Assembly (NCBI GenBank): GCA_004431415.1
Contig: QPMI01000032.1
Coordinates: 116,251-180,250 of the forward strand
DNA from: Cyanophora paradoxa CCMP329
Lineage: Eukaryota > Plantae > Glaucophyta
Direction of reading: 5' to 3'
Length of the DNA stretch: 64,000 nucleotides
A program made the position numbers and the translations under genes. Positions 76 to 25,509 of the stretch are shown one piece after another (the first letter of the stretch is position 1; the number at the start of each line of letters is the position of its first letter). Below the pieces are notes generated by a model. It had not been told where the DNA came from and did no database searches. It worked only from the letters and a program-made list of their open reading frames with translations.

Positions 76-412
76 AGTGGAGTATTACGCCATGGCTACA
101 TAAACGAAAAATCCCGAAATAATACAAATACATTCGAATTCCCCACGATATTCAGTAATACATACTTTTCATCGATAAATTCAATCGAGATATTCCCACT
201 GACTCACTGATATCATCAATCATTTCATTAAACCCCTGACGATATTCAGTAACAAAAACAAAAAAATCACGCCATGGCTACAATTACATCTTTATCATCT
301 TTATCATATTTCATTTCCATTTCCCACTTACCTCGATTGCTTTATCGTTTTACTTCTCAGATTATACTTCTTCCTTACAACATTCTTTCGATTCGGCTTG
401 ATCCCTTCTTTC
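76..412 (+). repeat. PLV-A left TIR (337 bp)
   Basis: Reverse complement of 25173-25509; begins AGTGGAGTATTACGCCATGG; overlaps the 3' end of the integrase gene. Confidence 0.95.
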
Positions 413-1395
413 GCTAATTTGCGATTTACTTCATTCGTTTTCGCAACTCTTATAATCCTCTTTTGATCAGGAATCTTAATAACATCAGCCTTACTCACTT
501 TCTGTAACTCGTTCTTTTTAAAACGTCTCTTAACTTCCTTTACTTCTCCATCCATATTTTCTAATACTTTGAACCTATTGTTATCTTTTGCACCAATTGT
601 ATATACTTTCTTGCTAAACCTTGCACCTTCTTTATCAAATATCCCTTTGGGCTCCAACACCCGAACAGTATCGCCTTGTTTCACATCAACTTGTTCAGTA
701 TCTTTCACTTGGTCGTTATGCACTGAATCCCGCAAGTAAATATATAGCTGCTTATGGTCACTATTATATACATTGTTTGGGGTGTCGTTCTTCAAAGAAG
801 AATGAGGGGAACTGTTGTATGTGTCTAAAACTTCTTTCACTAAATCGAGCCATTTCGAGCTTCCCTTTGCAATCATTGCCTTTCTCAGATACTGCTTAAA
901 AGAAATCGTAAATCTATCTATGATACCTAACTTGTTGCCTACCGAAATGTGGTCGTCTTTTGCTACATCTGTGTAGAGTTCCACACCATTTGCGCTGCAC
1001 CATTCACGATAAACTCTCTGTGAAAACTCATTATCTCCCGCCAATCCTACAACTTTCCCGGCATCCTGCTTAAACCTATCTAAAATGCCCTGAATTTCGG
1101 AAGACTCTTTGAAAGGATACACGAATGCTCTCCTGCTCAAAATCTCAATGAAACTAAGCGCCTCACCAATGCCTCTATTAGCTGTTTGAAATCCTCTAAA
1201 AAACATAATGTCTACTTGAAATGATCGGGGTCTCGCTACAATACGTAAAAAGCTCTTTGGTCTTTTTGGTTTCTTGAAAATCTGTTGTAGTTCCGAGTTC
1301 TCGAACTGTTTTTTTAGTTTCGCCTCGTCAAAACTTACACCTTCATTAATTAGTTTCTGCCTGTATTTCTTGTATGATAACACTGTATCCATCAC
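328..1395 (-). CDS. rve-type (retroviral-like) integrase, PLV-A
   Basis: FQVDIM, AGDNEF, GIIDRFT, YNSSPHSSLK motifs; GDTVRV...F C-terminal region typical of Polinton integrases; close homolog at 8314-9375. Confidence 0.9.
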   Translation of the reverse strand: MMDTVLSYKKYRQKLINEGVSFDEAKLKKQFENSELQQIFKKPKRPKSFLRIVARPRSFQVDIMFFRGFQTANRGIGEALSFIEILSRRAFVYPFKESSEIQGILDRFKQDAGKVVGLAGDNEFSQRVYREWCSANGVELYTDVAKDDHISVGNKLGIIDRFTISFKQYLRKAMIAKGSSKWLDLVKEVLDTYNSSPHSSLKNDTPNNVYNSDHKQLYIYLRDSVHNDQVKDTEQVDVKQGDTVRVLEPKGIFDKEGARFSKKVYTIGAKDNNRFKVLENMDGEVKEVKRRFKKNELQKVSKADVIKIPDQKRIIRVAKTNEVNRKLAKEGIKPNRKNVVRKKYNLRSKTIKQSR

Positions 1396-4300
1396 TGAGC
1401 CGCACAGTTACACTTAATATGAGAGAGGGAAATATTACCGATAACATGAGCGACCGCATTGTTTTCGCGGTCAACCGAGACCTCATCGTAATCCATAATT
1501 TGGAAGCATCGCCAACAAAGCCCATTCTGAATTCCGAATCTTTGCTTTATCCATGGATAAGTAACATACATAGATTCGACGAAATCGCGACCTGCAACCT
1601 TGTCTTGATGTTTATAACCTTGAATCAGTCTATGCATTCTTGATTTGAAAGCGCCCATATCATAAATCTCGCTTCCATCCACACAAATCACGGTGTCCTT
1701 CAAATATGGTGTCCTGGTCAGTGCGACCCACAACCAATATTTGGTGACGTGGGGCGATTGCGCCTCGAAAACAACCACCCGCTTATTTTTTACGGTGTCA
1801 CCTTGCACAACGTGACACGTATTTGCATAGGGAAGCGTGAAATGCTTGATTGAATCGTATGGAAGCGTTATTTTAATGCTTTCATCTGCGTAGTCTGAAA
1901 TCGTAAGCGTGGTTTCGTTCAGATCCTCGATGATATACGAGAATCCATTATGGATGATTACACTCTCGTCATCTGCCGTCTTCCCTTTCGTCAGGCGCTG
2001 CTTTGCTATAATTTCGAGCCCTTTAAAATGAGTTGGCGTATCTATACCATACTTAATGCGGTGGATCATAGCATTAACCTGTGCTGCTTTGCGGTTTGTG
2101 TAAGTAATAGCTCTATCGTCAGGTCGCAACTGATCAGGCGAAATAACAGGTATGTTATGCTTTGCAAGGAATGCGGATATGTCCATGTTCTTTTCGAATA
2201 AATCTTGCTTCCATTCGAGAATCTTTTCGCGATCTTCTGGCAAAATGTGGCGCTTATTCACATGCAACTCTAACAAGCTCGGGAAGAGCTGCTCAAAGAT
2301 CTCGTTATAATATTCCTTCTGATCCACACTAAGGAACTGAATAGGTGGATTTTGCAACGGGTCACCATTCAGAATGTAGGTCTTGTCAGGGTAGGCGACT
2401 TTCATCATGTGTTTCAGTGCTGCAAGCTGTGGTATGCTAAGCTGGTAGCCTTCATCCATAACAATGCATTGATAAGGTGCAATCTTGCTTGCATTCGCAC
2501 CCACAACATCATCCATTTGGGAATCATCGATTTTCAGATTGAACGCACCATGAATGGTCATCACATTCTCCAAACCATCTTCGACTTTCATTTCTTTGAC
2601 ACGCTTGTTAGTGGGCGTGATATATAAGCAACTGTCGAATTTGCCACCGATCGCCTTGCTCACATACGACTTTCCGGTTCCTGGGGCATTTCCCTCAATT
2701 CTTATGCCTTTCCCTTTGGAAAGCATCATATCACATATCGCTTTTGTGTCAAATTCATCGGGAACCGTATATGTTGTGCAATCATTCTTTCTCACAGTAA
2801 CGAAATCCCTCAGTCTCTCCGGCTTGAAGAATCGAATCATTCCATTTGTCCTCTTTGTCTCAAGCTTCTTATGTAAGATCTTATTGCAATACTCATTGAA
2901 AGATATAGGTTTCGTGCTGAAACGTCCGATATTCTCATGCTTCGTGCGATCGAATTTAACTTCTTCTACATCTAAGCTTTCGTCGATTGCCTCATAGACT
3001 GCATCAACTTTAAGAGCCATAATGACACCCTTTGATTCCCTGCACTTCTTATACAGATCCATTCGTTGTTTTGAATAGACCATATTTTGGATTGGAAGGA
3101 ATCCATCTTTTAGTAGCCTTTCTTCTATTTTCTCCACATACCAAATGTGTGGGTCTGTTATCTCGTCAGCTGCAACAATGCGATCTGGGTTTTCGTAATC
3201 TTCAATTGCATGTTCTTCTTCAATTTCGGGTTTAACCTGATTTTTCCTTTGTTTTCGTTCTTCATAAGCTTGAATCCATTTTTCGTAGTTTGAGACTTTG
3301 ATTTGAGATTCGGTTTTGGCTTCTGTGGATTGATTGGGCTTCTTCTCACCGAGCCACAGTAATTTGACGTCGCCACCATGCTTTCTGGCAAACTCGATAG
3401 CATCCGATTTTAGGAAAAACGGTTTGGTTCGCGATCTCTGATTCTTTTGTTTCCCGAGCATTCCAATAATACTTACAAGAATCTGCTTCTTCTCAGTTTC
3501 GCTAAGGTTGCTCTCTAAGATCTGTTTGATAACATATTTAACAACGTTCTTGACAATTCGATATGGTTTTAAGATGTATTTTACATCGATTATGTCTATC
3601 AGGTCATCAAAGTATTCTTTGAGCATGATCCCTGGGATCAGGTTACATGGTGAATCTATGAGAATTCGCTTTGCTTTGGGATATCTGTATTGCACCCACT
3701 CCTTTCCAGTAGAGTCCTTCTTAATAAGGTATTGTCCTTTCTTCAAAGTCACGTAGTAGAAGCTGTAAGGTTCCACATCGGCGACTGATTGTATGGACAC
3801 ATCCTTAAAGTCATCGAATTCGCTAAATACCGGGAAATACTCAAACGAATTTACGTGACCTGCATAGGCTTTGCAACCATCGTGTTCGAACATTTTCAGG
3901 CACCCATCATTCAAATCCTTAATGATTTCGGCGGAATCTTCAAAGCGACCATTTAAGGCACTCTGGGAACCGACCACGAAAGCATTTCGTGTGCTTTCGT
4001 TGTAGGAACTCTTCAAGGATCTGTTAATTAATGCTTCGTAGAACATGTTATTATATTTGGTAAATGCATCCCGCTGCTCTGAGTTCTCGAACTGCAAGTG
4101 GTAAGCTGTCTCAACTTCGACTTCTGGGCACACAGGTATAATGATGACATCCTTGTTCTGATACTTGAACCTTATGCTTTGGATGGATCCGAGAACCGAA
4201 ATTCTGGCATCAGCTATGTAATTATGCACTGTCAGGAAGGAAGCATACAATTTAGTCAGACCACCTGCACCACCGTAATTGATGCGGATAAGGTTCTTTT

Positions 4301-4554
4301 TTGTCGCCTCATCTGATTGGAGAATACCTACAATATGATCCTCATTGGCTGCGAAAAAACTACCACTGTTGTTATCGTTTCTTCTTAGCCTGTATCTGCA
4401 ACCCAACGGCATATCTTTCTCAGTAGGCTTAGATCCATTGAAAGATTGAATGAGGCTCTCAACATTATTATTGAGTAAATACATGTGTCCATTTTGAACT
4501 TTGACATACATGGTGGATGGTCGGAGGAATTTGTTCCTCGTTCTCTTTCCGTTT
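1392..4554 (-). pseudogene. 3' part of the interrupted PLV-A replication gene (PolB-like palm + SF1/RecD-like helicase + HNH-like C-terminus)
   Basis: Walker A GNAPGTGKS, Walker B IVMDE, GDPLQNPP, YANTCHVVQG, WVALTR; C-terminal CWRC...VDR...H...N...CN; colinear with the PLV-B protein. Confidence 0.88.
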
Positions 4555-4568
4555 GCATCCACAGGAAT

Positions 4569-7390
4569 TTTTTTCACAAAGCCCATATCAAGGGCGGTGG
4601 CGATTGTATTTGTTCAGTAACATCATCGTACGCACTACCGGTTCGGAATAGGCCGAACTCTGGGTCAGAGCATAACCTGAGGCCGGAACACAGGGATAGG
4701 CGCCTCGACGCTACAGCTGAGCGTTTCTCTTGTGGGGGGAGGCGTGGGAGGGGGTCGTAGGTGTGAGTGTAGACGTACAGTTGGGAGTCGTGGCGCCATG
4801 GGGGCCAAGCTTATCAGTCAGGGGAGAGCGGGGCGGGGAGGGAGGGGGGGAGGGGAGCGGCGCGGGCTAGGGTAGCGGGCGCGCCCCCCGATTTTTATTG
4901 CGTGTGGGGCGCGGGGTGGGTGTGGGCCGGGTAGGGGCTTTATCGGGTATGCCGCGGCCGCGGGGACGGGCGGTGGCGGGCGGGGTGGGCACCCTAGGAG
5001 GGTCAGGGGACAGAGGGGCGTGGCGGGGGCGCAGGCCGTGGAGCTAGTCTGTCGCAAGCGTCCGGGCCGGAGAGATGCTTAGGGAGGTGGGGCGAACCCG
5101 TAGGCGGGCAAGGCTTAATGCGAGGGCGGGTAGGGGGGTGTCATTGCTTCATGGAGCTATCTAACTCAGAGAGGAGGGCGGCGGGCTTGTCACAAGGCCC
5201 CTTTCTTCGGCAGTCATGCTACCGCAAATTGTAGAGAGAGGAAAGAGAAAGAAATCGGGGGCCGAAAGGGTAAAAGTGCCGAGAGAGGAAATTTCTACGC
5301 TGCCGCGTTGTCGGCGGCGGCCGCCCGGCGGCCGGCCAGGAGGGCCTCGATGGCGGCGGGGCCCCCGAGGGCCCAGGTGAGCTCGGCGAGCACGCGCTGG
5401 GCCGCCTGGTAGTTGGTAAGCGAGATGGTGGCCGGCCCAGGGCCGGGGGCGGGGGCCGGGCCCGGGGCGGGCGCGGGGGCGGCGGCCGGTGCCGGGGCGG
5501 CGGCGGCGGCGACGGCGGCGGCAGCGGCGGCGGCGGCAGCAGCGGCAGCGGTGGCGGCGTTGGCGGCAGCAGCGGGGGCGGCCGCGGCGGCCGCGGCGGC
5601 GGGGCGGGGGCGGCGGCACCGCCCTCGCGCTTCTTGACGGCGTCGGGGCCGAAGCGCTCGATCGCGCGCTTGTGGGACTGGGCGGCGATGTCCGCCGCGA
5701 GCTGGGCGGCCTCCTCGGGGTCTTGTCCTCGTTAAGGGCGCTGAGGCGGTTGAGCCGGCGCGCCCCCGTCGAGTGGCCGGGGCGGTAGGACGCGCGGCCA
5801 CCCCGTCGGGGTAGTTGATGCGGTGCTCCCGGGATCGAGATCTTCTTGCTGTTCTTGGTGGCCTCGAGGGCCACCGAGTCGGGGCCGCCCCCTATAGCTA
5901 TATATATGCAAATGATCATGAGCTCAAGGGCCTATATAGCTAGCTATGCGCTTGTACGCATGCAGTATATATATACCGTACGCGGACCCTGTCCTGGTTC
6001 TCTTGTTAAACGTTTAGACTCTGAGAGATTTGCATGCAAGTTCGAGCTCGAGCGAGGGTGCCCAGCTCCCTCGTGCAGTTAAAATCTTTCGAATCGCTCC
6101 ACTAGGGGGCCAAGCTTTTAAGGGCCTCCTAAAGCAGACGGGGGCCGACTTATTCGTGTGTATATCGATATCGCAGGCGCCCCTCAAGCTCGCCGACCGT
6201 ATAGGAGGCTTGCATCGCGGGGGGTGTGCAGGGGACCGGTCGCCTCGTGGGGGAGGGGCCGGCGGGCATGAGGGGCGGGCGGCGCGGGGCCTGGCAGCGA
6301 CCGCCGGGGACGCACTGCCCGCCGCTGGGAAGTCTTCGACGGAGCCGGGGATTCCGGGTCCGATAGTGGGCGAGCGCCATCAGGCTCGGACCCCACGAGG
6401 GCGGGTCCCGGCGAGGCCGGGCCCTGAGGCAGGCGAGCGCCGTCTGGCTCAGACCCCGCGGTGGTAGCTGGGCGAGCGTTTGAGTGCTCATGCGCCCGGG
6501 TAGACGTAGGGGACGTCGGCTTGCATGCCGGCGCCAGCGGCGCCAGGGGAACGATTTGCATAGGCGCCAGCGGCGCCAGCAGAGGCGGCATCACAGCTCG
6601 GGGCTCTGTCCACTGCCGCGTCTTGGGGCGCTTGCTCCGCGTCCCGCCAGAGGCCTGCGAGCGTCGCGCACGCGTCACGGAGAGCCAAGTGAGCGGGGGG
6701 GACGCGGCCCCGTGGTTCTTGAGTGTCGTGCTGGCGCGGGCGGCCCCGCGCACGGGCCGCCGGCGCCGGCGTGCTCTGTGGCCGTACGGGTCCGGCGTCA
6801 GAGTTCATAGAGGAGGGGCGCGGGCGGAGGGCGTGAGCGACGGGCGCGGGGAGGGTCCCGCATGATCGGCGGCAGCGGAGCCGGGTGCGTTGGCGGAGCC
6901 ACGCGTCCGACTGCGCGGAGTCGAGTCGAGTTGTGCGTCGTGCGCTGTGGGCGTGGGCTCAGGCGAGCCGCGCATGCGCGGGTGGCATGCGTTGGCGGGA
7001 AGGCGGGCGGAGCGAGGACGGGAGCTTAAACGGGCGTATGTTGGCTCTAGATGTTGTGGGGCGTCTCTCGGGCGCGCTCGGAGTGGCAGGAGAAGGCGGC
7101 GGGGACCGGCCCGTTTAAACACGTTACCGCGGGAGCTGGCGCGAGTCGCGGCGCCAACAGGGGCGCAGCTGCTCTTCGAGATGTCTGTGGTGTCGCTGCG
7201 GCTGTCGTTGCCCGCCCGGCGGACCTACTTTGCGCGTTCGGGCCGTGCTGGTCGTTGGGCGTCGGCGCCGCGAGTTTTGGGACCGGCCACGTGCAGTGCT
7301 AGCAGGCACCCTCGTTGGGGAAGCCCCACTGCGCCGGCTTACTCGCTCGCGGGCCTTCGCGCAATTTTCCGGGGTACCGGAATCGCGGCC
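4569..7390 (-). mobile_element. 2.8-kb GC-rich retroposed insertion (non-autonomous non-LTR-type) inside the PLV-A replication gene
   Basis: 14-bp TSD GCATCCACAGGAAT at 4555-4568 and 7391-7404; T-run at the left junction (oligo-A tail on the minus strand); abrupt GC shift; removal restores the frame SYIPVDANGKR. Confidence 0.85.
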
Positions 7391-8068
7391 GCATCCACAG
7401 GAATATAGGATAGGGCATAGTCCACTTTATCATTCTCGTCTAGTACTATCATAGAAAGCTTGTATGGCTTCAGAAATGCATCGGTAATTTGTCGTAATGA
7501 TAATCCCATATCGTCCCCATCAACAGGATCCCGACCATGCACCAATTTGAACAAGAAGGCATGATTCAGCTTGATAGAAACGTAGCGCCCATAATCTTTG
7601 GCTTTTTCAAACGCTGGTGCAAATACAGCAATGATAGCATCATGCACACATGATTTAATTCTCAATTCCTTGTTCTTTGTTTTATCAAAGAAATCACAGA
7701 ATGACTTTGAGTTAACATCAAATTCGTAAGTAAGATACTTAGATGGGATCATAGGCGCTTGATAGTCTCGTAAGATCTGGTCGATCCTGGGGATAAAGTC
7801 GTTATCGTTCTCAGGTCTTATCTTCTCGATTGTCAGGACATCACTGTAAGTGCCTGTGTGAACGTTTTTCAGATAAATTAAATCAGGGTTTCTATTACCA
7901 AACTGCATGTTTTCGAAAATGAATTGTTTGATTGCTTTTTTTTCGAAACATGGGACATTGGTAAATGGTCTGTTCATAAGATCGAGGGATTTTATGAAAA
8001 GGTCTTTCTTCAATTTAACCGAATGGAATGAACCGTCTTTTCTGTCTTTGAGAACTTGGTAGTATCTG
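7391..8068 (-). pseudogene. Middle fragment of the PLV-A replication gene
   Basis: LFKLVHGRDPVDGDDMG matches LFKMVNGRDPVEGDDWG of the PLV-B homolog; joins both neighbouring fragments in frame. Confidence 0.9.
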
Positions 8069-8073
8069 TCACC

Positions 8074-8316
8074 AGCTCAGCACTGCGCCGTGTCTCCAAA
8101 AAAATCCCCGCGAAAAAATCAAAAACAAATCAAAAACAAACCATTCCCAGTAACCCTATTCGTATTCAACAGTAATCTCAGTAAGCCTCAGTAACAAAAA
8201 TCGAATTAATCGAAGTTATATCTTAAATCTTATTTATCGAAGTTATATCATAATCTCGATTAATTATATTTAATCGAAGTTATTTCCTTTTTATCCGCCG
8301 TGTCTCCCATGATTTA
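8074..8316 (+). repeat. PLV-B left TIR (243 bp)
   Basis: Begins AGCTCAGCACTGCGCCGTGTCTCC; inverted copy at 19073-19315. Confidence 0.93.
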
Positions 8317-9375
8317 GCGTTTCGTTAAACCACTTCTCAGATTGTATCTTCTCCTTACAACATTACTTCGATTGGGTTTTATGCCTTCCTTTGCTACCAA
8401 TCGATTCACTTTATTCGTCTTATTAACCTGCTGAATTCTTTTTTGCGATGGGATCTTTATGATATCATCTTTATTCACCTTTTGCAATTCTTGCTTCTTA
8501 AATCTCCTCTTCACTTCTTTCGTTTCCTCACCATCATTATCTTCAAGCACTTTGAAACGATTCCTATCAGCCTTTGCAACAGTGTAGACCTTCTGACTGA
8601 ATTGCGCACCTTCTTTTTCAAATAACCCCTTCGGTTGCAAAACTCGAACTGTGTCTCCTGGTTTCACTTGATTAGTATCAGCCTCCTTTACACGATTGTT
8701 GTGAACAGTATCTCTCATGTAAATAAATAACTGTTTATCTTCATTTGTATACACTGCATTCGGTGAGTCATTTTTCAATGCCGAATGGGGACTGCTATTA
8801 TACAAGTCAATAACATCACTAAGTAGATCGATCCATTTCGTGGTTCCCTTTGCTGTCATCGTTTTTCTGAGATACTGTTTGAAAGTCCTAGTGAACCTAT
8901 CAATAATCCCCAGTTTATCTCCTACTGTGATGTGGTCATCCTTTGCCACATCTGTGTAAAGCATCACACCATGTTCACTGCACCAATTTCGGTATACTGC
9001 TTGGGAGAACTCATTATCCCCAGAGAGAGCATTAACTTTGCCTGCTTCTTGCTTGAACCTATTTAAAATACTCGGGATCTCACTGCTGTTTTTAAAAGGA
9101 TAAACAAATCCTTTGCGACTAAGTATGTCTACGAAACTAAGCATTTTGAAAATGCCATTGTTGGCAGTCTGAAACCCTCTGAAATATGTTATATCGATTT
9201 GAAACGATCTAGGCTTTGCCACTATGCGAAGAAACGATTTGGGTTTCCTTGGTTTCTTGTAGATTTGCTGGAGTTCTGAGTTTTTGAATTTCTTTTTCAA
9301 CTCTTTTTCATCAAAACTCACTTTTTCATTAATCAGTTTCTGCCTATACTTTTTGAATGATAATACACTATCCAT
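8314..9375 (-). CDS. rve-type integrase, PLV-B
   Basis: FQIDIT, SGDNEF, GIIDRFTRTFK, YNSSPHSALK; highly similar to 328-1395. Confidence 0.9.
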   Translation of the reverse strand: MDSVLSFKKYRQKLINEKVSFDEKELKKKFKNSELQQIYKKPRKPKSFLRIVAKPRSFQIDITYFRGFQTANNGIFKMLSFVDILSRKGFVYPFKNSSEIPSILNRFKQEAGKVNALSGDNEFSQAVYRNWCSEHGVMLYTDVAKDDHITVGDKLGIIDRFTRTFKQYLRKTMTAKGTTKWIDLLSDVIDLYNSSPHSALKNDSPNAVYTNEDKQLFIYMRDTVHNNRVKEADTNQVKPGDTVRVLQPKGLFEKEGAQFSQKVYTVAKADRNRFKVLEDNDGEETKEVKRRFKKQELQKVNKDDIIKIPSQKRIQQVNKTNKVNRLVAKEGIKPNRSNVVRRRYNLRSGLTKR

Positions 9376-14310: not shown

Positions 14311-15072
14311 TTAACGGCGATAACCAGGTCTAATACCAAGCTTGGCAAACCCTGAGACCATTGGGGCAGCATTTGGAATCGAGTTGACTGGATCAGCCTG
14401 CGAAGTGGCAACCCGAAGGATCGATTTATTCAGGACCGGCAAATCCGTTTTGTTGGAGTCTTGATACTCAATGGTCTTCGCAATCAATTCAGTTGGTGAA
14501 TCTTTTACGACTTGAACAGGTTCAGGAATAACTTCATGGGTTACTTCTGGTTTCTTCTCAACCTTTTCCTTTGTGATTGGCTGTTCCTTGATCTTGTTTT
14601 CGTTTTTGGTCTCTGCTGCAATACCATCAACAAGACTCTTCGCATACTGATATGTCACAGATTTCAGTCCGCCAGTGGTTGATCGAATAAAGTAACGGTT
14701 GCGATGGTCTTTCTCGGAATAGGTTGAGTAGAGTCGTTCACCACCATCAAGCAGTTTCAGCAGTGTCGATGATGAGGCAACCTTGTCCTTTGTGGATGAT
14801 TTGAACTGCCCTTTCTTGATTCCTCGTTTGGCTCCAGGCATGCGGTTCAGTGGGACTTGGTCAACCAGGGCATTATCATCGTTACTGTTTTTCGTAGTGG
14901 CTTGGGTGTATTGGTTTCGCTCTTTGTGGACTTCCTTTTCGAGGTCACCAGTTCCGTATGCAGCGATTCCCTTCGATTTCTTATACCAGTTTCTTCCGTT
15001 TTCGCCATTGCCAACATCCGCTTCAGCTGCTGGTTTGGCTAAGAAATTCTTTGGCTGAGTCTTGCGAGCCAT
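14311..15072 (-). CDS. Lys/Arg-rich protein, putative virion core protein
   Basis: Homolog at 20537-21319 (shared NALVDQVPLNRMPG and SGFAKLG motifs); lies next to the penton; function inferred. Confidence 0.6.
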   Translation of the reverse strand: MARKTQPKNFLAKPAAEADVGNGENGRNWYKKSKGIAAYGTGDLEKEVHKERNQYTQATTKNSNDDNALVDQVPLNRMPGAKRGIKKGQFKSSTKDKVASSSTLLKLLDGGERLYSTYSEKDHRNRYFIRSTTGGLKSVTYQYAKSLVDGIAAETKNENKIKEQPITKEKVEKKPEVTHEVIPEPVQVVKDSPTELIAKTIEYQDSNKTDLPVLNKSILRVATSQADPVNSIPNAAPMVSGFAKLGIRPGYRR

Positions 15073-15107
15073 TTGTAATATCGAGACAAAATTATTCTAC
15101 AGTATTT

Positions 15108-16007
15108 CTATGACCGTGAGAATGGCAGGTAGAGTCCCTCCAACTCTTTAATGACATTCTTCAATGCTTTCTTTGTCAGGTCTTTATCATCTTCAGTAAT
15201 CAGTTCGAGAGTCATTGACCAATCCGTGGTAATATCGGTTTCAGCACCATTCCAATATGTAAGACGAACTTTTAGCGTTTCAACTTCCACCAAACCATTT
15301 TGCTCATGCGTGATCATGGAATTATTCGATGAATCGTATTTTAGTAGACTGCCTACCGTTTGGTCAATCTCAATTTTTGCAAGGGCTTTATCATCGCTGG
15401 TGTTCTTGCTTACATAGTTGCCTTTGAGTGGGTCAACATGAAGAAGGATGTATGAATTAAACAGAAGATCAAGTGGTATTACACTATCAACATAATGGGT
15501 AAAAGTGACTGCTCCGACTGTAACTGTTGCATCGAGCAGATCAGAAGCGTAACCATTTTCAGAACTCTCAGGTCTGAGATCTGGGAAACCAAGGAAGTTT
15601 GCTAAGATCCGACTACCAAAGCTTAGGTTGAATGCTGCATCGCACATGAACCTTAGAAACATTGTAACGGGATCATAGGTTACTCGAAAATGGCGAGTAT
15701 AGGTTGTTCCTGCTGCACCATATGCCTGTGAAGCAAGCTTCGCATTAAGGAGATTCACTAAACTATCCGAAGTATATGTCCCTTTTGCAATGGTGTTACT
15801 CTTGGTCTTAACAGCATTCCCAGCATCATATGTGGCTGTAATCAAACTTCCATTCTCGCTGAGATTGTAAATGTTATTGAACATCTCAAAGTTAGTCACT
15901 CTGCAGGCTCTCACATTTTGAATTGCATGGGGAATTTTGTAAGTGAAGTTTGTTGGGGTTCCATCATCCCGATCCCGAGAATCAATATTAAGGTAATGAC
16001 GCGTCAT
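15108..16007 (-). CDS. Minor capsid protein (penton), PLV-B
   Basis: N-terminal YLNIDSRDR...NFTY and C-terminal LKVRLTYWNG...DWSMTLEL pattern typical of PLV/NCLDV single jelly-roll pentons. Confidence 0.8.
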   Translation of the reverse strand: MTRHYLNIDSRDRDDGTPTNFTYKIPHAIQNVRACRVTNFEMFNNIYNLSENGSLITATYDAGNAVKTKSNTIAKGTYTSDSLVNLLNAKLASQAYGAAGTTYTRHFRVTYDPVTMFLRFMCDAAFNLSFGSRILANFLGFPDLRPESSENGYASDLLDATVTVGAVTFTHYVDSVIPLDLLFNSYILLHVDPLKGNYVSKNTSDDKALAKIEIDQTVGSLLKYDSSNNSMITHEQNGLVEVETLKVRLTYWNGAETDITTDWSMTLELITEDDKDLTKKALKNVIKELEGLYLPFSRS

Positions 16008-16059
16008 TCTGTTTAATAAAGCATTTTAAAAATTTCTTTTGGTATTTTAAACATAAGAG

Positions 16060-17286
16060 ATGGCACTCACTGGAACTACCCTTAAGGAACTCCTCGTGAC
16101 TCCCGGTTCAGATCAAATTTATCTATCCCCTGGTCTCCAAATCGGAACCAACCCCAAGTACAAACCATTCCTCGAGCAAGTTCGTCCCCGAGGCAATACT
16201 TTTGGCTTTAAGAATACCGCTTACTTTGATCTACCTCGCAAGCAACTCCTTGCTGGTGTTTCCCTCTATTTCAAGATTGCCACTGGTGGTGAGGTAGCCT
16301 GCACCCTCCCCAATGGTGGTTCTTCCTTCATCAATGAGGTCCGCTTCGTTCATGGTGGTTTCAAGTATATCATCCCTGGTGATTGGATCACTGTAAACGC
16401 TCTGATCGACAATGATCATGCTACCATGGGCAGCATGTATGCTTCTCTCGGTTACTTCAAAGAACTTGATCGTGAAAGCACAGATGAGGCAATGGAATAC
16501 ATCGTTAAAATCCCGGCTGCTTTCTGGGACGATGCCTACTTCCCACTTTGCACACTGGCTGATATGCCAACAATTGAGGTGGATTTCCGTGATGCTGCGA
16601 TTGTCCAAGTTCCTGCCGGTGGATCTGTTACCTTTGCGGATTGCTCTCTGATCTGCCAATTCGTTAACATCGCTTCGGCTGAGGCTGAGACACTCTTGAA
16701 GATGGCGAACGAACAAGGTGGCATTCGCATCCCGATCACAGAGGTCATTCACAAGAAGACCCGAGCGCTCAAAACCGCTGATGCTGGTGAATCGGTTGAG
16801 GTTACACTCGCTAATGTTTCTGGTCTGGTTCACTCAATTCTGATGACTGTTCGAGAGGTGAACAAACTTAACACCTACACTCACTCAGATTTCTGTGGTC
16901 ATGAATCTGCTGTTAAAATTGATCAGTTCCAGATCTTCCACAACAATCGCTCCCTTGATATCTCCAACAAACCCATTTCCGGTTTCCTCTCGGCAATGAA
17001 TCACATTCCATCCCATTATAAGGGCGTTTCAGTTGGCAATACCACCTACGGATTCGAGTCTGGAAATGTTTACGGAATTGTTCTATCCAAATCCGGAAAG
17101 GATTCGCTCCACAACTCGGTTCTGGGTTACCAGGATTTCTTCAACAGCAGCTCCAGCTACATGGATCTCACTGTTTCGGGATGCACTGATGCTGCTCCTG
17201 TTCAGGTTGACATCTATGCCCTACGACACAATGTTATGGTCCTAAATGGCTACAACATCTCTACCCTGAAAGTCTCGAACTTCTAA
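16060..17286 (+). CDS. Major capsid protein (double jelly-roll, PLV type), PLV-B
   Basis: 408 aa; FDLPR, SSFINEVRF, YFPLCTL, terminal VDIYALRHNVMVL; sits between penton and ATPase; homolog at 22298-23521. Confidence 0.8.
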   Translation: MALTGTTLKELLVTPGSDQIYLSPGLQIGTNPKYKPFLEQVRPRGNTFGFKNTAYFDLPRKQLLAGVSLYFKIATGGEVACTLPNGGSSFINEVRFVHGGFKYIIPGDWITVNALIDNDHATMGSMYASLGYFKELDRESTDEAMEYIVKIPAAFWDDAYFPLCTLADMPTIEVDFRDAAIVQVPAGGSVTFADCSLICQFVNIASAEAETLLKMANEQGGIRIPITEVIHKKTRALKTADAGESVEVTLANVSGLVHSILMTVREVNKLNTYTHSDFCGHESAVKIDQFQIFHNNRSLDISNKPISGFLSAMNHIPSHYKGVSVGNTTYGFESGNVYGIVLSKSGKDSLHNSVLGYQDFFNSSSSYMDLTVSGCTDAAPVQVDIYALRHNVMVLNGYNISTLKVSNF

Positions 17287-17365
17287 AGTTCTTTTCTTTC
17301 GTTAGAGTAGGAAGCGCAAAATTAGTAGGTAAGGGGTTTATTTTGTTTTTTATCTTATTACTGTA

Positions 17366-18124
17366 ATGGATAACACAGTAAACTTAGATGATATACCGGA
17401 GTTTGATCCTAGCAAAACAGTTCGAATCCCAACGAGAATTTTAAATGTTGGCCGCTCCAATACAGGTAAGACAATGTTTACAAAATACTTACTTTATGAG
17501 CTTCGTGACAAGATCGATCAGATCGTAATATTTAGTTCAACAGCTTTTACTGGGCAATTCAATGACATCACCCATCCAGATAACATCTATGAGGAATGGG
17601 ATGATAACATTGTTTTGAGATTGATCAGTATGCAAAAGAAACGAATCGAGAACAATGAGAAACGAAATAACTTAGTAATCATACTCGATGACATGATAGG
17701 TTCCAATTTGGATATGCATAATTCGGCTGTGTTATCTAAATTGGTCACGAGCGGCCGCCATTATTCAATTTCTGTGATATTTAATGTTCAGCGTTTATGC
17801 TCAATTTCTACTACCATTCGTCGTAATGTGGAGTTCGTTGTATTTTTCAATATACTTGGGAATGAAAAGGAATTCAATTGCGCCTTTGATGAGTACAATG
17901 GTGGAATGGATAAGAAGACCTACAAGGAATTGCATAGACTATGGGGTTATAATTACCAAACTGTCATAGCTAGCCTGCAAGGTTATGATATCAAGACCTA
18001 TACTGATAGAGCAGTACTAACAGATGATGATATAAAGGGCTTTAAGAAGTTTCTTAAGAGAAAAGCAATTAAAAGGAGTCAGATGGCTCGGATTCAGCGA
18101 GAAATGACCACAATCAGTGTGTGA
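17366..18124 (+). CDS. A32-like genome packaging ATPase, PLV-B
   Basis: Walker A GRSNTGKT, Walker B VIILDD, SGRHY motif, STTIRRN. Confidence 0.92.
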   Translation: MDNTVNLDDIPEFDPSKTVRIPTRILNVGRSNTGKTMFTKYLLYELRDKIDQIVIFSSTAFTGQFNDITHPDNIYEEWDDNIVLRLISMQKKRIENNEKRNNLVIILDDMIGSNLDMHNSAVLSKLVTSGRHYSISVIFNVQRLCSISTTIRRNVEFVVFFNILGNEKEFNCAFDEYNGGMDKKTYKELHRLWGYNYQTVIASLQGYDIKTYTDRAVLTDDDIKGFKKFLKRKAIKRSQMARIQREMTTISV

Positions 18125-18389
18125 AAGGTCGTTATTTGAGAACTAGTGTATGGCAAGGTAGCTTGAAATAATGAGATGATTATGTAGTTGCGTAGAGCTT
18201 AACAAGCGCTTCAAAAAGCTATGCAGAACGTCGCGAGTTGATAATCTGGTGATGAGATAGAAGCGTTTGAAGATGCCGATAATCGATTTACCGAAACTTC
18301 GGTGAAACTTCGACGTGTGATAAACACAGTGTGATTTAAATCACAGGGGGGGGGAAAGGTTTTAGTCACAGGTGATACAAATCACAGGG

Positions 18390-18660
18390 TGGTTTATACC
18401 ACGAATTATGTTTTAGCTAGTGGTTTCTACCACGAATTATAATTAAGCTAGTGGTTTCTACCACGAATTATAATTAAGCTAGTGGTTTCTACCACGAATT
18501 AGTGGTTTAAAGCACGAATTAAGTTTTAATTTGTGGTTTCAAGCACGAATTAAGTTTTAATTTGTGGTTTCAAGCACGAATTAAGTTTTAATTTGTGGTT
18601 TCAAGCACGAATTAAGTTTTAATTTGTGGTTTCAAGCACGAATTAGTGATTGAAAGCACG
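18390..18660. repeat. Tandem array of 31-bp units (two variants) in the PLV-B subterminal region
   Basis: CCACGAATTATAATTAAGCTAGTGGTTTCTA about 3x, then AGCACGAATTAAGTTTTAATTTGTGGTTTCA 4x. Confidence 0.9.
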
Positions 18661-19072
18661 CGTGATAAAAAGCACGCGTGATAAAAAGCACACCAATCAG
18701 ATTGCGTCACACATTGCGTCACAATACATCATGACAATATACACATCGCCGTGATCGTCATAATCTCCCGAGTCACGTGGTATGTCATATATATCATATA
18801 CATATACATCGTCATCATGACGTCATATATATCACATATACACAAATTGATATGTTATAGGTTTTACCATAAATCGTTTTTCTATGATATATATCATATA
18901 TACTATATTGATATATTGACGTATATACGATTAAAAAGCATTTTCACTTCTATTGTTTTTATTGTCGTTTCTATCGTTGTTTCTAGTGTAGAAAATACAG
19001 TGAAAAACCGTTTGAAAAATACAGTAAAAAATGAGAGGTTTTTCAAACGAAGTTTAAACTGAAATCACTTTG

Positions 19073-19315
19073 TAAATCATGGGAGACACGGCGGATAAAA
19101 AGGATATAACTTCGATTAAATATAATTAATCGAGATTATGATATAACTTCGATAAATAAGATTTAAGATATAACTTCGATTAATTCGATTTTTGTTACTG
19201 GGGCTTACTGAGATTACTGTTGAATAGGAATAGGGTTACTGGGAATGGTTTGTTTTTGATTTGTTTTTGATTTTTTCGCGGGTATTTTTTTGGAGACACG
19301 GCGCAGTGCTGAGCT
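19073..19315 (-). repeat. PLV-B right TIR
   Basis: Reverse complement of 8074-8316. Confidence 0.93.
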
Positions 19316-19755
19316 TCACCCCATTCTTCCACAACCCTAACGTTTTTGGGGGCTTTTGTCACAATCAACCGATACATACGAAAATACATAGTCACAGTGT
19401 CGCCCTCTAAATTCTCGATTTTCTCTTTTAGATTTTTCATCAGCTTCTGGAACCGGCTAATATGTGTCTTGGTGTTGCGTTGCGGGCGCTGGTCTGTTAG
19501 TTCCTGGGGAACGTCGATAGCACCCAATCTTTGGAACTCATCCCCCACCTCGCGCTTTGTAAGGTTATTCTCGTAAATTCCCTTTGCTGTGTCATTCCAA
19601 TCTTTTGCCGTTTTTAACGTAATTCGCCTGGCTATCGCATTGAGAATAAGGTTAGCTTGCTCTGTTGTCATCAATCCATGAACAAGACTCATAGTAGTGT
19701 AACCAATAGTGTCTTCATTAAGCTTTCTGATCAACCGGTTGGAAGGGCGAGGCAT
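19316..19755 (-). pseudogene. 5' fragment of the PLV-A replication gene
   Basis: MPRPSNRLIRK matches MPRPGNRIANK of PLV-B; reads in frame into 8068 after PLV-B is removed (EEWGDRYYQVLKDRK). Confidence 0.9.
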
Positions 19756-19961: not shown

Positions 19962-20216
19962 TTAGATATACTTAGATGGGCGACCGACATTATTATAGGG
20001 AACGCCAAACAAGAATTTCACGAAACAAATCGCATTGTTTGAATACGCACGGTGACTTGCTTGAACGATTTTCATTGAGCGATAGCAATCATCAGATTGA
20101 TAAAGCTCGTAAACCTTTTTTCGCATTTTTTCCTTGTTCTTTTGAAGCGCAATTTTGCCTTTCCCGGTAGCCCGGTAATTAGCATTTGCACGCTTCTGAG
20201 CCGCACTTGTCGTCAT
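19962..20216 (-). CDS. Conserved ~85-aa basic protein, PLV-A
   Basis: Homolog of 13704-13961 in the syntenic position. Confidence 0.8.
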   Translation of the reverse strand: MTTSAAQKRANANYRATGKGKIALQKNKEKMRKKVYELYQSDDCYRSMKIVQASHRAYSNNAICFVKFLFGVPYNNVGRPSKYI

Positions 20217-21348: not shown

Positions 21349-22245
21349 TTACGAAAATGACCTATCGAATGGGAGGAGGTGATCCTGCAAATCGGCAAAT
21401 ATAGCTTTGAGGTCTTTCTTGTTTCTGTTGCCACCATCGTCAGTGACGATTTCGAGTGTCATGCTCCAATCGCTGTGCAAGATGACCTGAATCCCATTAT
21501 AGTATTTCAGTGCGATGTCGAGGTATTCAAGCTCGCGGTCTATCATGTCAGATGCTACCATAGTCGCATTGGAACCCTCGTATTTTAACAGGGCTCCGAC
21601 TTGCTGGTCGAGAATGATCTTTGCGATTGCGTAGCAATCGGATGGGTTGCGACTGATCACAGTGCCTCGTAGTTGCTCAATGTGTAGTAACATGTATGAG
21701 TAATAAAGGAGGTCGAGGGGAACCTCCGAATATAATTCGTGTGTGTAAACGAGTGCATCATACGTTTCGTTCACTGCCAACACTGCACCTAAATACAGTT
21801 TGTCAGCGACCTGGAATCCTGTAAAGTTTGCCACTGGAAGCGAGGCAAACCGGAGACCGAATGCCTCATTCGAAAGGATCCTTAGTTTCATGGTGTTTGA
21901 GTCGTAGAACACTTTGAATTTGCGGGTGTAGGTTCCACCTCCATTCTGCGCATACTGCTGTGTGCCAATCAGAACGTTAAGGTAATTAACGAGGCTCGTG
22001 GGGTCGTAGTTTCCGGCTTTAAAGGTGTTTGTCCGGGTCTTCTGGGCATTGATGTTATCGTAGGTGACTGTGGTAATGCTTCCATCTGTGGTGAGGTTGT
22101 ATAGATTATTAAATAGCTCAAAATTCGTGATCCTGCAAGATTTGACTCGCTTCACGGGATAGGGAAGTTTATAGCGGAAATTCGCGGAACTGGTAGAATC
22201 AGCTTCGCGATCCCTGGAATCGATATTGATTAGTATTTTTCCCAT
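21349..22245 (-). CDS. Minor capsid protein (penton), PLV-A
   Basis: LINIDSRDR...NFRYKLP; DWSMTLEI; homolog of 15108-16007. Confidence 0.8.
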   Translation of the reverse strand: MGKILINIDSRDREADSTSSANFRYKLPYPVKRVKSCRITNFELFNNLYNLTTDGSITTVTYDNINAQKTRTNTFKAGNYDPTSLVNYLNVLIGTQQYAQNGGGTYTRKFKVFYDSNTMKLRILSNEAFGLRFASLPVANFTGFQVADKLYLGAVLAVNETYDALVYTHELYSEVPLDLLYYSYMLLHIEQLRGTVISRNPSDCYAIAKIILDQQVGALLKYEGSNATMVASDMIDRELEYLDIALKYYNGIQVILHSDWSMTLEIVTDDGGNRNKKDLKAIFADLQDHLLPFDRSFS

Positions 22246-22297: not shown

Positions 22298-23521
22298 ATG
22301 GCGCTCGCTGGAACCACTCTTAAAGAGCTCCTCGTCACCCCCAATTCGAGCGAACTATATCTATCCCCCGGTCTGGTCATTGGCGCCAACCCGAAATATA
22401 AGCCATTCATTGAAACAGTCAAGCCTCGTGGCAACACCTTTGGCTTTGCTTCTACTGCGGTCTTTGACCTCCCACGCAAACAGCTACTCAGCGGTCTCTC
22501 CCTCTACTTTAAACTCACTGGTGGTGGTGGTGCGAACGCTACCCTTCCAAACTGTGCGAGTAGCTTCATTGAAAATGTCCGAATCGTCCATGGTGGTTTT
22601 AAACTCACGTTACCCGGTGACTGGATCACTGTAAACACCATCGTCGACAACGATCCCTCAACTCTGGGTGCTCTCGCCACCTCCTATGGCATGGATGATG
22701 CCGCTATTGTTCTTAATAACACTTCTCGTGAATTTATTGTTAAGATCCCCTCGCAAATGTGGGACGACTCTTACTTCCCTCTCTGTGCACTTGCTGAGAT
22801 GCCCCAAATCGAGGTCGATTTCCGGGCTTCGACTGTTGTAACTCTTGCTTTAAATGCTACCATCGCTATGAGTGATTGCTATCTTGTTTGTCAGTTCGTT
22901 AACATCTCATCTGATGAGGCTGAGCGACTGCTTAAAATGGCAAACGAGGAGGGTGGCATTCGCATCCCAATTACTGAGGTTCTCCACAAGCAAACCCGCC
23001 CACTGAAAACGGCGGATGCCGACACTGCGACTGAGGTCTCGCTTGCTAATGTGAGCGGACTTGTCCACTCGGTTCTGCTTACAGTCAGAAAGAACGCGGA
23101 TCTGAAAACGGTTAACCACTCTCGCTTCTATGGTAAGGGCGAAACCTACAACATCACGAACTTCGAGATCTACCACAACAATCGCACTCTCGATATTTCC
23201 AACAAGCCAATCTCTGGCTTCCTTTCCGCTGTGAACCACATCCCCTCTCACTACAAGGGTGCGAGCACAGGTGGTGCCGCTGTTGGAGTCGCTGAGGGAA
23301 GCGTTTATGGTGTTGTTCTGAGCAAGTCTGGCAAGGATTCGCTGCACAACTCGGTTCTCGGGTATCAGGACTTTTTCAACTCGTCATCAAGCTACATAAA
23401 CCTCACAGTTAACGGCTGCACTGATGCCAATCCGGTTGTGGTGGATATATTCACACTTCGCCACAATGTCCTCGTAATTAATGGCTATCAACTGTCGACC
23501 CTCAAAGTTAGCAACTTCTAA
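22298..23521 (+). CDS. Major capsid protein, PLV-A
   Basis: 407 aa; highly similar to 16060-17286. Confidence 0.8.
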   Translation: MALAGTTLKELLVTPNSSELYLSPGLVIGANPKYKPFIETVKPRGNTFGFASTAVFDLPRKQLLSGLSLYFKLTGGGGANATLPNCASSFIENVRIVHGGFKLTLPGDWITVNTIVDNDPSTLGALATSYGMDDAAIVLNNTSREFIVKIPSQMWDDSYFPLCALAEMPQIEVDFRASTVVTLALNATIAMSDCYLVCQFVNISSDEAERLLKMANEEGGIRIPITEVLHKQTRPLKTADADTATEVSLANVSGLVHSVLLTVRKNADLKTVNHSRFYGKGETYNITNFEIYHNNRTLDISNKPISGFLSAVNHIPSHYKGASTGGAAVGVAEGSVYGVVLSKSGKDSLHNSVLGYQDFFNSSSSYINLTVNGCTDANPVVVDIFTLRHNVLVINGYQLSTLKVSNF

Positions 23522-23597
23522 ACGAGGTAAGGTGCGGCGCTCGCGCAAGGCTCGCTTAGCGTGCCGTTTTTGTCTGTTTTTTTATATCTTTACTGTA

Positions 23598-24365
23598 ATG
23601 GATAAGGAAACCATAAATCTGGATGAAATACCTGAGTTGGATCCTGCAAGGAACATAGTTTTACCAACAAGAATCGGTTGCTGGGGACGTAGTAATACAG
23701 GTAAGACCACGTTCTCGAAATATTTACTGTATGAGCTTCGTCACCAAATCGATCAGCTCGTAATATTTAGTTCGACTGCATTTACTGGTCAATGGCAAGA
23801 CATCACACACCCCGATAATATCTTTGAGGAATGGAACGATGACCTTGTAGTTAAGCTCATCGGGATGCAAAAGAAACGAATCGAAAAGGGAGAGAGAAGG
23901 AACAGTATGGTTTTGATTTTAGATGACATGATCGGATCCTCGCTAAATATGGAGACGAATATGGTCTTGAAAAAGCTGGTAACCTCTGGAAGACATTATA
24001 TGATATCCCTCATCGTGAATTCACAACGCATGTGCTCAGTTAGCACAACAATTAGGCGCAACCTCGAATTCGTGGTCTTTTTCAATATATTAGGGAACGA
24101 AAAAGAGTTCAACTGTGCTTTTGATGAATATAATGGTGGTCTCAGTAAGAGAGACTTTAAGGAATTGAATAGGCTATGGGGTCATAGTTATCAGGTGGTC
24201 TGCGTGGGTCTGCAAGGCTACGACGTTAAGTTCTACACAGACCGGGCGATACTATCGGAGGACGACTTGAAAAAAATGACTCGGAAGTTTGGCAAGAGGC
24301 GGGTGTTGCAAAAGAAGGAACGATTGGCTCAAATACAGCGCGAGGGCGCTACGGTTACGATGTAG
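23598..24365 (+). CDS. A32-like packaging ATPase, PLV-A
   Basis: GRSNTGKT, VLILDD, SGRHY; start placed at ATG 23598 by homology with PLV-B. Confidence 0.92.
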   Translation: MDKETINLDEIPELDPARNIVLPTRIGCWGRSNTGKTTFSKYLLYELRHQIDQLVIFSSTAFTGQWQDITHPDNIFEEWNDDLVVKLIGMQKKRIEKGERRNSMVLILDDMIGSSLNMETNMVLKKLVTSGRHYMISLIVNSQRMCSVSTTIRRNLEFVVFFNILGNEKEFNCAFDEYNGGLSKRDFKELNRLWGHSYQVVCVGLQGYDVKFYTDRAILSEDDLKKMTRKFGKRRVLQKKERLAQIQREGATVTM

Positions 24366-24579: not shown

Positions 24580-24665
24580 GACAACTTCCCCCATCGTCCG
24601 GACAACTTCCCCCATCATCCTGACAACTTCCCCCATCGTCCTGACAACTTCCCCCCATCGTCCTG
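24580..24665. repeat. 21-bp tandem repeat x4
   Basis: GACAACTTCCCCCATCGTCC(G/T) units. Confidence 0.9.
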
Positions 24666-24953
24666 ACGTTCTGACAACCTCACTGTGATTGGTCAACTAT
24701 AAACAAAAAACACATAAAAAACTACTTTGTGGCATGCTATATGTTTTCGGACTCGCCGCGATGTGATGACCCGAATATGTCGGTTACGCCGGTATATATA
24801 TGTATATGTCGTGATATGCGAAAAAAAGTAAAAAAATGAAAAAATCGGAAGTTGTCGGGGATGGTATATACGGAGGCTCGGATGTATATATGGGATATAT
24901 ATGCTATTGGCGACGGTGCAAAAAATGATATATGGATTAAATATAAATTTTAA

Positions 24954-25223
24954 ATGGAAACAAACATGAAATGTCAAGTTTGTCTTGATCTGTTTGCGGA
25001 TGATTACTATAACACATGTCCTCAATGTGAATTTCATATATGCTTCGACTGCGTCGATAAGATGAGTGATTTCGATCGCTGCCCTTGTTGTAGATTCAGC
25101 AATGTTATAGCAAGTAAGGATGATTGGAAAAGAGTGGAGGAGGCACACAAAGCAACCGAAAAACGTCGAGAAGAAAGAAGGGATCAAGCCGAATCGAAAG
25201 AATGTTGTAAGGAAGAAGTATAA
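24954..25223 (+). CDS. Small RING-like zinc-finger protein, PLV-A
   Basis: CQVC...CPQCEFHICFDC...CPCCR Cys spacing; C-terminus runs into the TIR. Confidence 0.65.
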   Translation: METNMKCQVCLDLFADDYYNTCPQCEFHICFDCVDKMSDFDRCPCCRFSNVIASKDDWKRVEEAHKATEKRREERRDQAESKECCKEEV

Positions 25224-25509
25224 TCTGAGAAGTAAAACGATAAAGCAATCGAGGTAAGTGGGAAATGGAAATGAAATATGATAAAGATGATAAAGATGTA
25301 ATTGTAGCCATGGCGTGATTTTTTTGTTTTTGTTACTGAATATCGTCAGGGGTTTAATGAAATGATTGATGATATCAGTGAGTCAGTGGGAATATCTCGA
25401 TTGAATTTATCGATGAAAAGTATGTATTACTGAATATCGTGGGGAATTCGAATGTATTTGTATTATTTCGGGATTTTTCGTTTATGTAGCCATGGCGTAA
25501 TACTCCACT
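25173..25509 (-). repeat. PLV-A right TIR
   Basis: Reverse complement of 76-412. Confidence 0.95.

Follow-up and report, generated by a model that had tools for sequence, protein, structure and literature searches.

A Polinton-like virus and a likely retro-type element lie within the replication gene of a sister Polinton-like virus

Introduction

How did one endogenous virus come to lie inside the replication gene of its sister, and does this reflect targeting of one virus by another or the ordinary pile-up of mobile DNA? This question is raised by a 64,000-nucleotide stretch of contig QPMI01000032.1 of Cyanophora paradoxa CCMP329 (the whole stretch analysed, hereafter the window), in which one Polinton-like virus (PLV), PLV-B (8074-19315), lies within another, PLV-A (76-25509). 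An earlier note on this DNA had described PLV-B as integrated in the PLV-A replication gene and had proposed that its integration disabled the replicase of a relative. Our analysis showed that the nesting itself is real and well supported, and that it is likely an ordinary pile-up of mobile DNA. We consider it probable that PLV-B and a separate GC-rich retro-type element both entered the PLV-A replication gene, PLV-B likely by untargeted, integrase-driven insertion in a place where mobile DNA piles up.

Results

Two insertions in one replication gene

An inverted-repeat search set the limits of the two viruses. Their terminal inverted repeats (TIRs) and target-site duplications (TSDs), the pieces of the interrupted gene and the GC-rich insert are as follows; X1 and X9 are independent sequencing runs.

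70-75: left TSD copy of PLV-A (GATCAT, 6 bp); right copy at 25510-25515
76-412: left TIR of PLV-A, 337 nt, holding the final 27 integrase codons
25173-25509: right TIR of PLV-A, 337 nt, 100% identical to the left TIR
8069-8073: left TSD copy of PLV-B (TCACC, 5 bp); right copy at 19316-19320
8074-8316: left TIR of PLV-B, 243 nt
19073-19315: right TIR of PLV-B, 243 nt, 98% identical to the left TIR (4 mismatches)
18389-18691: subterminal tandem repeats of PLV-B, 31-nt unit
19316-19755, minus strand: PLV-A replication gene, piece 1, aa 1-146
7391-8068, minus strand: PLV-A replication gene, piece 2, aa 147-372
1392-4554, minus strand: PLV-A replication gene, piece 3, aa 373-1426, with a vOTU-like His, pPolB-like motifs A/B/C, an SF1 helicase and a C-terminal HNH-like motif
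4569-7390, minus strand: GC-rich insert, 2822 nt, 69% GC, with an oligo-A 3' end and no TIR, multicopy
4555-4568: left TSD copy of the insert (14 bp); right copy at 7391-7404; the site is empty in X1 and X9

The net sizes of the viruses were 11,351 nt for PLV-A and 11,242 nt for PLV-B, and PLV-A with its inserts extended over 25.4 kb. Both carried the TIRs of hundreds of bp and the 5-6-bp TSD expected of PLVs; the probability of a chance TSD match at a fixed place is 2e-4 for 6 bp and 1e-3 for 5 bp. These repeats and duplications confirmed that PLV-B, with its own TIRs and 5-bp TSD, sits inside PLV-A, with its own TIRs and 6-bp TSD. The description of the two TIRs as unrelated was nearly right, as their local alignment score of 26 (shuffles, 20 ± 2.4) was reached by 8 of 200 shuffles, but they have in common an AG start, a CT end and the word AAAAATCCC about 30 nt in.

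Joining the three pieces of the replication gene (440 + 678 + 3163 nt) gave 4281 nt. With an X placed at both breaks, the translation was 1426 aa long, with no internal stop and one terminal stop; the alternative frames of pieces 2 and 3 contained 14-83 stops. The joined protein aligned through both breaks with the PLV-B replication protein (38% over 780 columns and 48% over 596), which confirmed the open frame and the exact junctions claimed before. PLV-B lies after aa 146 and the GC-rich insert after aa 372, between the candidate vOTU Cys and His as placed by eye. The gap 4555-7390 is thus a second insertion, unrelated to PLV-B and bounded by a 14-bp TSD, which the earlier note left out of account in its inference.

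The GC-rich insert ends in 7 A on the minus strand, has a TSD of the variable-length type and lacks TIRs, as a non-LTR element would, and its 3' boundary recurred in a different context in run X17. None of the four open reading frames (ORFs) tested in it matched Pfam, no reverse transcriptase gene was found there, and Rfam gave 0 matches at the gathering score. From these sequence features it is likely a non-autonomous non-LTR retro-type element, read as non-autonomous because the four ORFs had no Pfam match, reverse transcriptase included. The insert also contains an Ala/Pro-rich coding-like stretch. Internal deletion variants of it were numerous in the DNA runs, with joints at 5170-5294 and others within 4739-6563. 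One joint was abundant in runs guessed to be RNA, and no canonical intron ends were found at the joints 5170/5174>5294. The guessed-RNA runs X15 and X17 mostly cover this insert and carry no evidence on viral expression.

These results indicate that this PLV-A copy could not make a full replicase. The earlier proposal that PLV-B disabled the gene stands insofar as PLV-B interrupts it; PLV-B cannot be claimed as the disabler, because the GC-rich insert breaks the same gene, the order of the insertions cannot be read, and either insertion alone would break the gene. The integrase, capsid and ATPase frames of PLV-A are intact, in agreement with the claim that its capsid module and integrase were left whole. 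At 25.4 kb against 11.35 kb, this copy is probably too long for its capsid. Since the replication gene makes up 38% of PLV-A, its being the gene hit is unremarkable once PLV-A is hit.

Within its 3' end the retro-type insert holds an ATG that continues in frame into the remainder of the replication gene, opening a 1064-aa ORF (4586-1392, minus strand) that keeps the polymerase-like motifs, the helicase and the HNH-like motif. As a speculation, read-through from the insert could yield a truncated replicase.

Junctions and copies in independent sequencing runs

Twenty-four runs were listed, of which 14 hold at least half of the words from 3500-9500. Contigs of the DNA runs X1 and X9 join 4554 to 7391, where 14 letters fit both sides, and 8068 to 19316, where 5 fit both sides, indicating that uninterrupted PLV-A copies exist. 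A 1003-nt contig of X2 also runs through the empty PLV-B site. The un-nested copies that the earlier note had proposed to look for were therefore found. For the nested state, a 56-nt contig of X1 (8044-8099) covers the filled left junction with 0 differences, 30 letters on one side and 26 on the other, which is just under the tool's bridging bar of 31 letters on each side. Its depth of 77 resembles that of three other single-site contigs in X1 and X2 (71-87). Of the four virus junctions, the left PLV-A/PLV-B junction was thus covered by this short contig, and the other three were not seen bridged. Among the contigs listed for X1 and X2, none crossed the filled retro junction 7390/7391; contigs demonstrate presence only, and a missing junction contig does not date the insert.

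It is highly improbable that the nesting is a misassembly of multicopy repeats. Both families are indeed multicopy, 3 of the 4 virus junctions were not seen bridged, and GC-rich DNA of the window holds probable indel errors (two copies 2.6 kb apart, with 68 gap positions). A misassembly would nevertheless have to account for exact 5- and 14-bp TSDs at breaks without PLV-A/PLV-B homology, for the exact frame across them, and for an X1 junction contig at single-site depth.

Relative depth in X1, set against three single-site contigs with a mean of 80, was about 3 for PLV-A, 20-22 for PLV-B, 40 for the PLV-B TIR and 14-27 for the retro insert; these ratios are rough, and the tool warns that depth is no true copy number. 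Between the nested PLV-A and the dominant contig, 23 of 37 codons differed synonymously and 14 non-synonymously, against a neutral expectation of 25.5% synonymous (p 3e-6); the 39 differences classed are the listed best-supported subset (29 + 10/10). This synonymous excess over neutrality suggests that the differences mostly arose under selection. Together with the 0 TIR mismatches and the other intact ORFs, it makes the nested PLV-A insertion look recent and derived from a family under selection. The divergence of the TIRs was rejected as an insertion clock, since PLV-B-family TIRs vary among copies, with indel variants at 8131-8173 in the sequencing-run contigs.

Entry of PLV-B into PLV-A

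Under the reading that we favour, PLV-A would have integrated first through its own rve integrase, leaving the 6-bp TSD. PLV-B, of a far more abundant family, would later have entered PLV-A through its own integrase, leaving the 5-bp TSD. The retro-type element would have come by target-primed reverse transcription, as its 14-bp TSD and oligo-A end suggest, before or after PLV-B. Insertions in this region may be cost-free to the host and so persist, which would explain the third PLV and the small repeat elements in the same 56 kb.

Several observations weigh against this reading. The filled left-junction contig was found in 1 of 2 runs, with none among the X2 contigs listed, and no bridging contig was seen in the runs for the right PLV-B junction, the PLV-A junctions or the filled retro junctions. 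The inner PLV-B TIRs differ at 4 of 243 positions and the outer PLV-A TIRs at 0 of 337 (Fisher p 0.03), whereas a simple age clock would make the outer pair the more diverged. The flank comparison given below covers three flanks, and the codon comparison given above a listed subset of differences. The strongest argument for targeting is that 20 insertions placed uniformly would hit the PLV-A family, a 34-kb target, with a chance of only about 0.7%. This figure is weakened by the after-the-fact choice of the case and by local clustering, and 20 random insertions would hit some viral DNA with a probability of 0.18-0.64 (assuming a 100-Mb genome of which 1-5% is viral).

The pattern of TIR mismatches would fit an entry of PLV-B into a free, replicating PLV-A genome, during co-infection or reactivation, followed by integration of the composite by the PLV-A integrase, whose gene lies outside the damaged part. 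We regard this course of events as very unlikely. The heterogeneity of PLV-B-family TIRs means that the mismatches may be inherited, or they may come from polishing; further replication of the composite would need a helper replicase; and the junction depth of 77, like that of single sites, indicates one composite copy only.

The low uniform chance would also be explained if the PLV-B integrase were steered to resident PLV DNA, especially that of its sister, and so knocked out competitors. A precedent exists in Cafeteria, where 91% of type 1 Ngaro retrotransposons lie in endogenous mavirus-like elements (EMALEs), according to PMC8547959; on the other side, the same paper states that the integration of Mavirus-like EMALEs is not sequence-specific. 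No more than about 1 of 20 PLV-B copies can sit in this PLV-A copy, and the other PLV-A copies are empty at the site. Three other PLV-B flanks, among those listed, were compared with this window, the only sequence to which these 30-letter flanks, one of them a mixed consensus, could be compared; 0 of 3 matched it at up to 3 mismatches, so that the flanks tested are not PLV-A, PLV-B or third-element (element C) sequence. The gene hit is, moreover, the largest target in PLV-A. With about 20 copies and none of the three other flanks matching viral DNA in the window, the preference of PLV-B for other viral DNA was not supported. Steering to viral DNA is accordingly improbable, and interference between the viruses is unlikely.

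A broader bias of the PLV-B integrase to AT-rich or accessible DNA, of which viral DNA forms a large share in a GC-rich host, had also been suggested. GC content is about 32-50% over positions 1-56000, two islands (about 4.6-7.4 kb and 27-28 kb) excepted, and 64.5% in the last 8 kb (56000-64000, host DNA), compared with 42% for PLV-A and 41% for PLV-B. PLV-A itself lies in DNA of about 38% GC, and one of the two unmixed PLV-B flanks has about 20% GC. The other, however, has about 73% GC, the site within PLV-A is only 40-47% GC, and purging of insertions from GC-rich genes would produce the same pattern without any bias. We therefore give such a bias little credence, and untargeted insertion remains the reading that we prefer.

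A far-reaching version of these ideas is that an abundant minimal PLV preferentially integrates into a rarer sister, possibly while the latter is free and replicating, and thereby disables the replicase of a competitor. We doubt this strongly. If true, it would amount to virus-on-virus insertional warfare within a single host lineage, between viruses whose capsid lineage has hardly any sequenced relatives.

Gene content of the two viruses

The seven genes shared by PLV-A and PLV-B were collinear and in the same orientation, with 34-72% identity, which bears out the synteny reported earlier. Identity was 72% for the integrase, 54% for the 85-aa basic protein, 50% for the 250-aa protein, 45% for the likely minor capsid protein, 66-67% for the major capsid protein (MCP) and 67% for the A32 ATPase. 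Besides the replication gene of PLV-A, the genes are as follows.

328-1392, minus strand: PLV-A rve integrase, 354 aa, intact; Pfam rve_3 E 0.005, below cut-off
19962-20216, minus strand: PLV-A basic protein, 84 aa
20537-21319, minus strand: PLV-A 260-aa protein of no known family
21349-22245, minus strand: PLV-A likely minor capsid protein, 298 aa, 45% to that of PLV-B (label inferred)
22298-23521, plus strand: PLV-A major capsid protein, 407 aa, predicted double jelly roll
23598-24365, plus strand: PLV-A A32-type ATPase, 255 aa counted from the probable start (the ORF is open from 23481); Pfam Pox_A32 E 1e-10
24954-25223, plus strand: PLV-A Cys-rich (zinc-finger-like) ORF, 89 aa, extending into the right TIR
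8314-9375, minus strand: PLV-B rve integrase, 353 aa, intact
9375-13462, minus strand: PLV-B replication gene (putative pPolB-SF1-HNH type), split here into two frames, 784 + 578 aa
13704-13961, minus strand: PLV-B basic protein, 85 aa, 54% to PLV-A and 69% to the third element; no family
14311-15072, minus strand: PLV-B 253-aa protein, 50% to that of PLV-A; no family
15108-16007, minus strand: PLV-B likely minor capsid protein, 299 aa (labelled by its position and an N-terminal motif)
16060-17286, plus strand: PLV-B major capsid protein, 408 aa, 67% to that of PLV-A
17366-18124, plus strand: PLV-B A32-type packaging ATPase, 252 aa; Pfam Pox_A32 E 1e-15

No counterpart of the 89-aa Cys-rich ORF was found in PLV-B. 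The 298/299-aa gene beside the MCP is a candidate for that of the minor capsid protein, from its position and an N-terminal motif; these candidates had no Pfam or PHROG match. PLV-B had been called complete, a description to be qualified, as its own replication gene is frameshifted in the window copy. The two frames overlap around a short run of C near 11185, and there the dominant contig of X1 and X9, which is not frameshifted, carries one additional base. The one-base shift is due either to the assembly or to a mutation restricted to this copy.

The integrases matched Pfam rve weakly (E 0.004-0.01, below cut-off) and the rve of the third element at 25-27% identity (25% for PLV-A; E 1e-18 to 1e-20), and their TSDs are of rve length. 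Two D motifs are present, and the third acidic position is Asp (IIDRF) in both proteins. Although this third catalytic residue is Asp and not Glu, both viruses have evidently integrated, and their TSD lengths differ (6 vs 5).

For the replication protein, the C-terminal SF1 helicase was recognised by Pfam AAA_19 (E 3e-7) and as Dda-like (E 4e-17), and RecD/Pif1 structures were matched. Upstream of the helicase, pPolB-like motif words (DxxKxY; K...IG..G; D-V/C after a hydrophobic run) occur in PLV-A, in PLV-B and in two relatives of 1300 aa, the two that a search with longer proteins returned. Among neighbours in the Atlas at 0.88-0.89, DNA_pol_B_2 is present in 15-25% of members; at a value below 0.9, this serves as a lead only. 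The putative polymerase assignment comes from the motifs and this Atlas lead. A search of the PDB with phmmer gave no polymerase match (0 matches), the single-sequence fold was unusable (pLDDT 31), and the comparison with the pPolB of the third element gave no significant match (best E 0.09). By eye, a conserved Cys and His follow in the order expected of vOTU, and the C terminus reads CxxC...DRxNN..xH..N, for which the endonuclease VII profile gave only E 0.7.

The model of the PLV-A MCP (pLDDT 68.5, pTM 0.72) matched the double-jelly-roll capsids of iridovirus and PBCV-1 (E 3e-17, TM 0.64-0.68). The mavirus capsid came at rank 50 (TM 0.48), virophage capsids ranking below those of nucleocytoplasmic large DNA viruses (NCLDVs). 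The PLV-A MCP is thus predicted from its model to be a double jelly roll. A HMMER search among 1.84 billion representatives returned 5 MCP relatives at E<=0.001, with 20-25% identity. The only named one is a EukProt protein of the glaucophyte Cyanophora paradoxa, with 22-23% identity to PLV-A and PLV-B and 31-66% (best E 2e-56) to the frameshifted capsid of the third element, a match that points to a glaucophyte as the likely host. Word-based protein searches of 7994 candidates for the MCP and 4686 for the polymerase region gave no match at E<=0.001, and locus searches confirmed 0 of 74, 0 of 118 and 0 of 82 candidates in viral contigs and 0 of 110 in metagenome contigs as relatives.

Judged by their sequences, both viruses have a Tlr1-type gene set: an rve integrase, a putative pPolB-SF1 helicase-HNH fusion, a predicted double-jelly-roll capsid and an A32 ATPase. 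Among their ORFs there was neither a stand-alone pPolB with exonuclease nor a maturation protease, as a Polinton/Maverick would have. A Mavirus/Sputnik-type MCP and cysteine protease, as in virophages, were likewise not found, the Pfam scan showing no protease.

Other elements in the window

A third element (28781-55828) is larger and appears to be a partly decayed PLV or a composite. It carries a pPolB with an endonuclease VII insert (49593-52799), an rve integrase (52803-54188), a D5 primase-helicase (46060-48108), an S74-chaperone fibre, a patatin, a SAM decarboxylase, a frameshifted MCP (41763-43093) and a frameshifted ATPase. Its outer TIR pair lies at 29447-29610/54941-55104, and no TSD was found at the ends tried. 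An inverted-repeat pair of 9-nt tandem units (45620-45740/55184-55304) brackets its primase-pPolB-integrase arm, and this arm (45620-55304) could represent a further unit, nested or recombined.

PLV-B and the third element have non-coding DNA that is about 85% alike (18185-18826 and 54261-54516; 13690-14018 and 48307-48629). Their 85-aa genes are 69% identical, closer than PLV-B is to PLV-A, and AT-rich 27-nt TIR repeats are common to both. The shared non-coding DNA, gene and repeats suggest that unrelated PLVs exchanged DNA recently.

Between PLV-A and the third element lies a 1-kb element (26843-27889) resembling a miniature inverted-repeat transposable element, with 41-nt TIRs and no clear TSD. 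Positions 56300-57720 hold a host F-box/LRR-like gene, labelled by eye, with apparent introns and frameshifts. At 59774-64000 a GC-rich unit occurs twice, 2630 nt apart, the copies being 95% identical; their 68 gap positions suggest indel errors of the assembly.

Discussion

The locus offers a clean, independently supported example of a PLV within a PLV, with two intact-looking 11-kb Tlr1-type viruses and a very divergent capsid in a probably cultivable alga. With about 20 PLV-B copies and many public DNA runs, this genome offers a direct test of the target choice of a PLV integrase. Targeting, if true, would mean that endogenous viruses compete with one another in a new way.

The virus-in-virus arrangement is already reported in another protist, Halocafeteria seosinensis, where 5 PLVs and 9 virophages lie inside other viral elements and a transposable element breaks a viral replication gene (10.64898/2026.07.28.741278). 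As there, we found viral elements with TIRs and TSDs within viral elements, transposable elements in viral genes, and hotspots of viruses and transposable elements. The cases pictured for Halocafeteria mix virophages and PLVs, whereas the present pair consists of syntenic sister PLVs, and both insertions lie in a single gene. Nesting in general is described in the papers considered, none of which reports a PLV that interrupts the replication gene of its syntenic sister; closer cases may be contained in the Halocafeteria supplements.

GC-rich retroelements inside PLVs and virophages are described for cryptophyte PLVs (PMC12220804) and, as Ngaro elements, for Cafeteria EMALEs (PMC8547959). The present case is similar in that an AT-rich endogenous virus has a gene broken by a GC-rich retro-type insert, but this insert is 2.8 kb long, has no detectable reverse transcriptase or recombinase, and shows a 14-bp TSD and an oligo-A end, not long direct repeats.

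PMC12220804 also mentions Cyanophora and glaucophyte PLVs, and gives 14-40 kb as the typical size of PLVs, a range below which PLV-A and PLV-B fall and which is no strict criterion. Replicase mosaicism and NCLDV-like PLV clusters (Zora, VC218, Zephyr) appear in 10.64898/2026.10.13.758929 and 10.64898/2026.06.19.733378, and helicases fused to unknown domains in PMC10120064. In the OmPLV of Oxyrrhis, an endogenous PLV, PMC12721341 describes an SF1 helicase-pPolB fusion of about 1500 aa that is often fragmented. The OmPLV helicase is N-terminal and an exonuclease is present, whereas in PLV-A and PLV-B the putative polymerase motifs precede the helicase, and no exonuclease was found.

PLV-A and PLV-B resemble Tlr1 of Tetrahymena and PLV-Bnat of Bigelowiella, described in PMC5499653 and PMC11161782, in being linear with TIRs, an MCP, a likely minor capsid protein and an A32 ATPase. 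Their protein of about 1400 aa also resembles that of Tlr1, with putative pPolB palm motifs followed by an SF1 helicase and a candidate endonuclease; PMC11161782 re-reads Tlr1-like proteins as active pPolB-S1H fusions with a vOTU domain. The integrase is of the rve type as in Tlr1, and no capsid maturation protease was found. Unlike Tlr1-type viruses, PLV-A and PLV-B are small (11.2-11.4 kb), and their capsid has only 5 relatives at the threshold given above. The candidate C-terminal nuclease is HNH-like as in PLV-Bnat, whereas Tlr1 has GIY-YIG.

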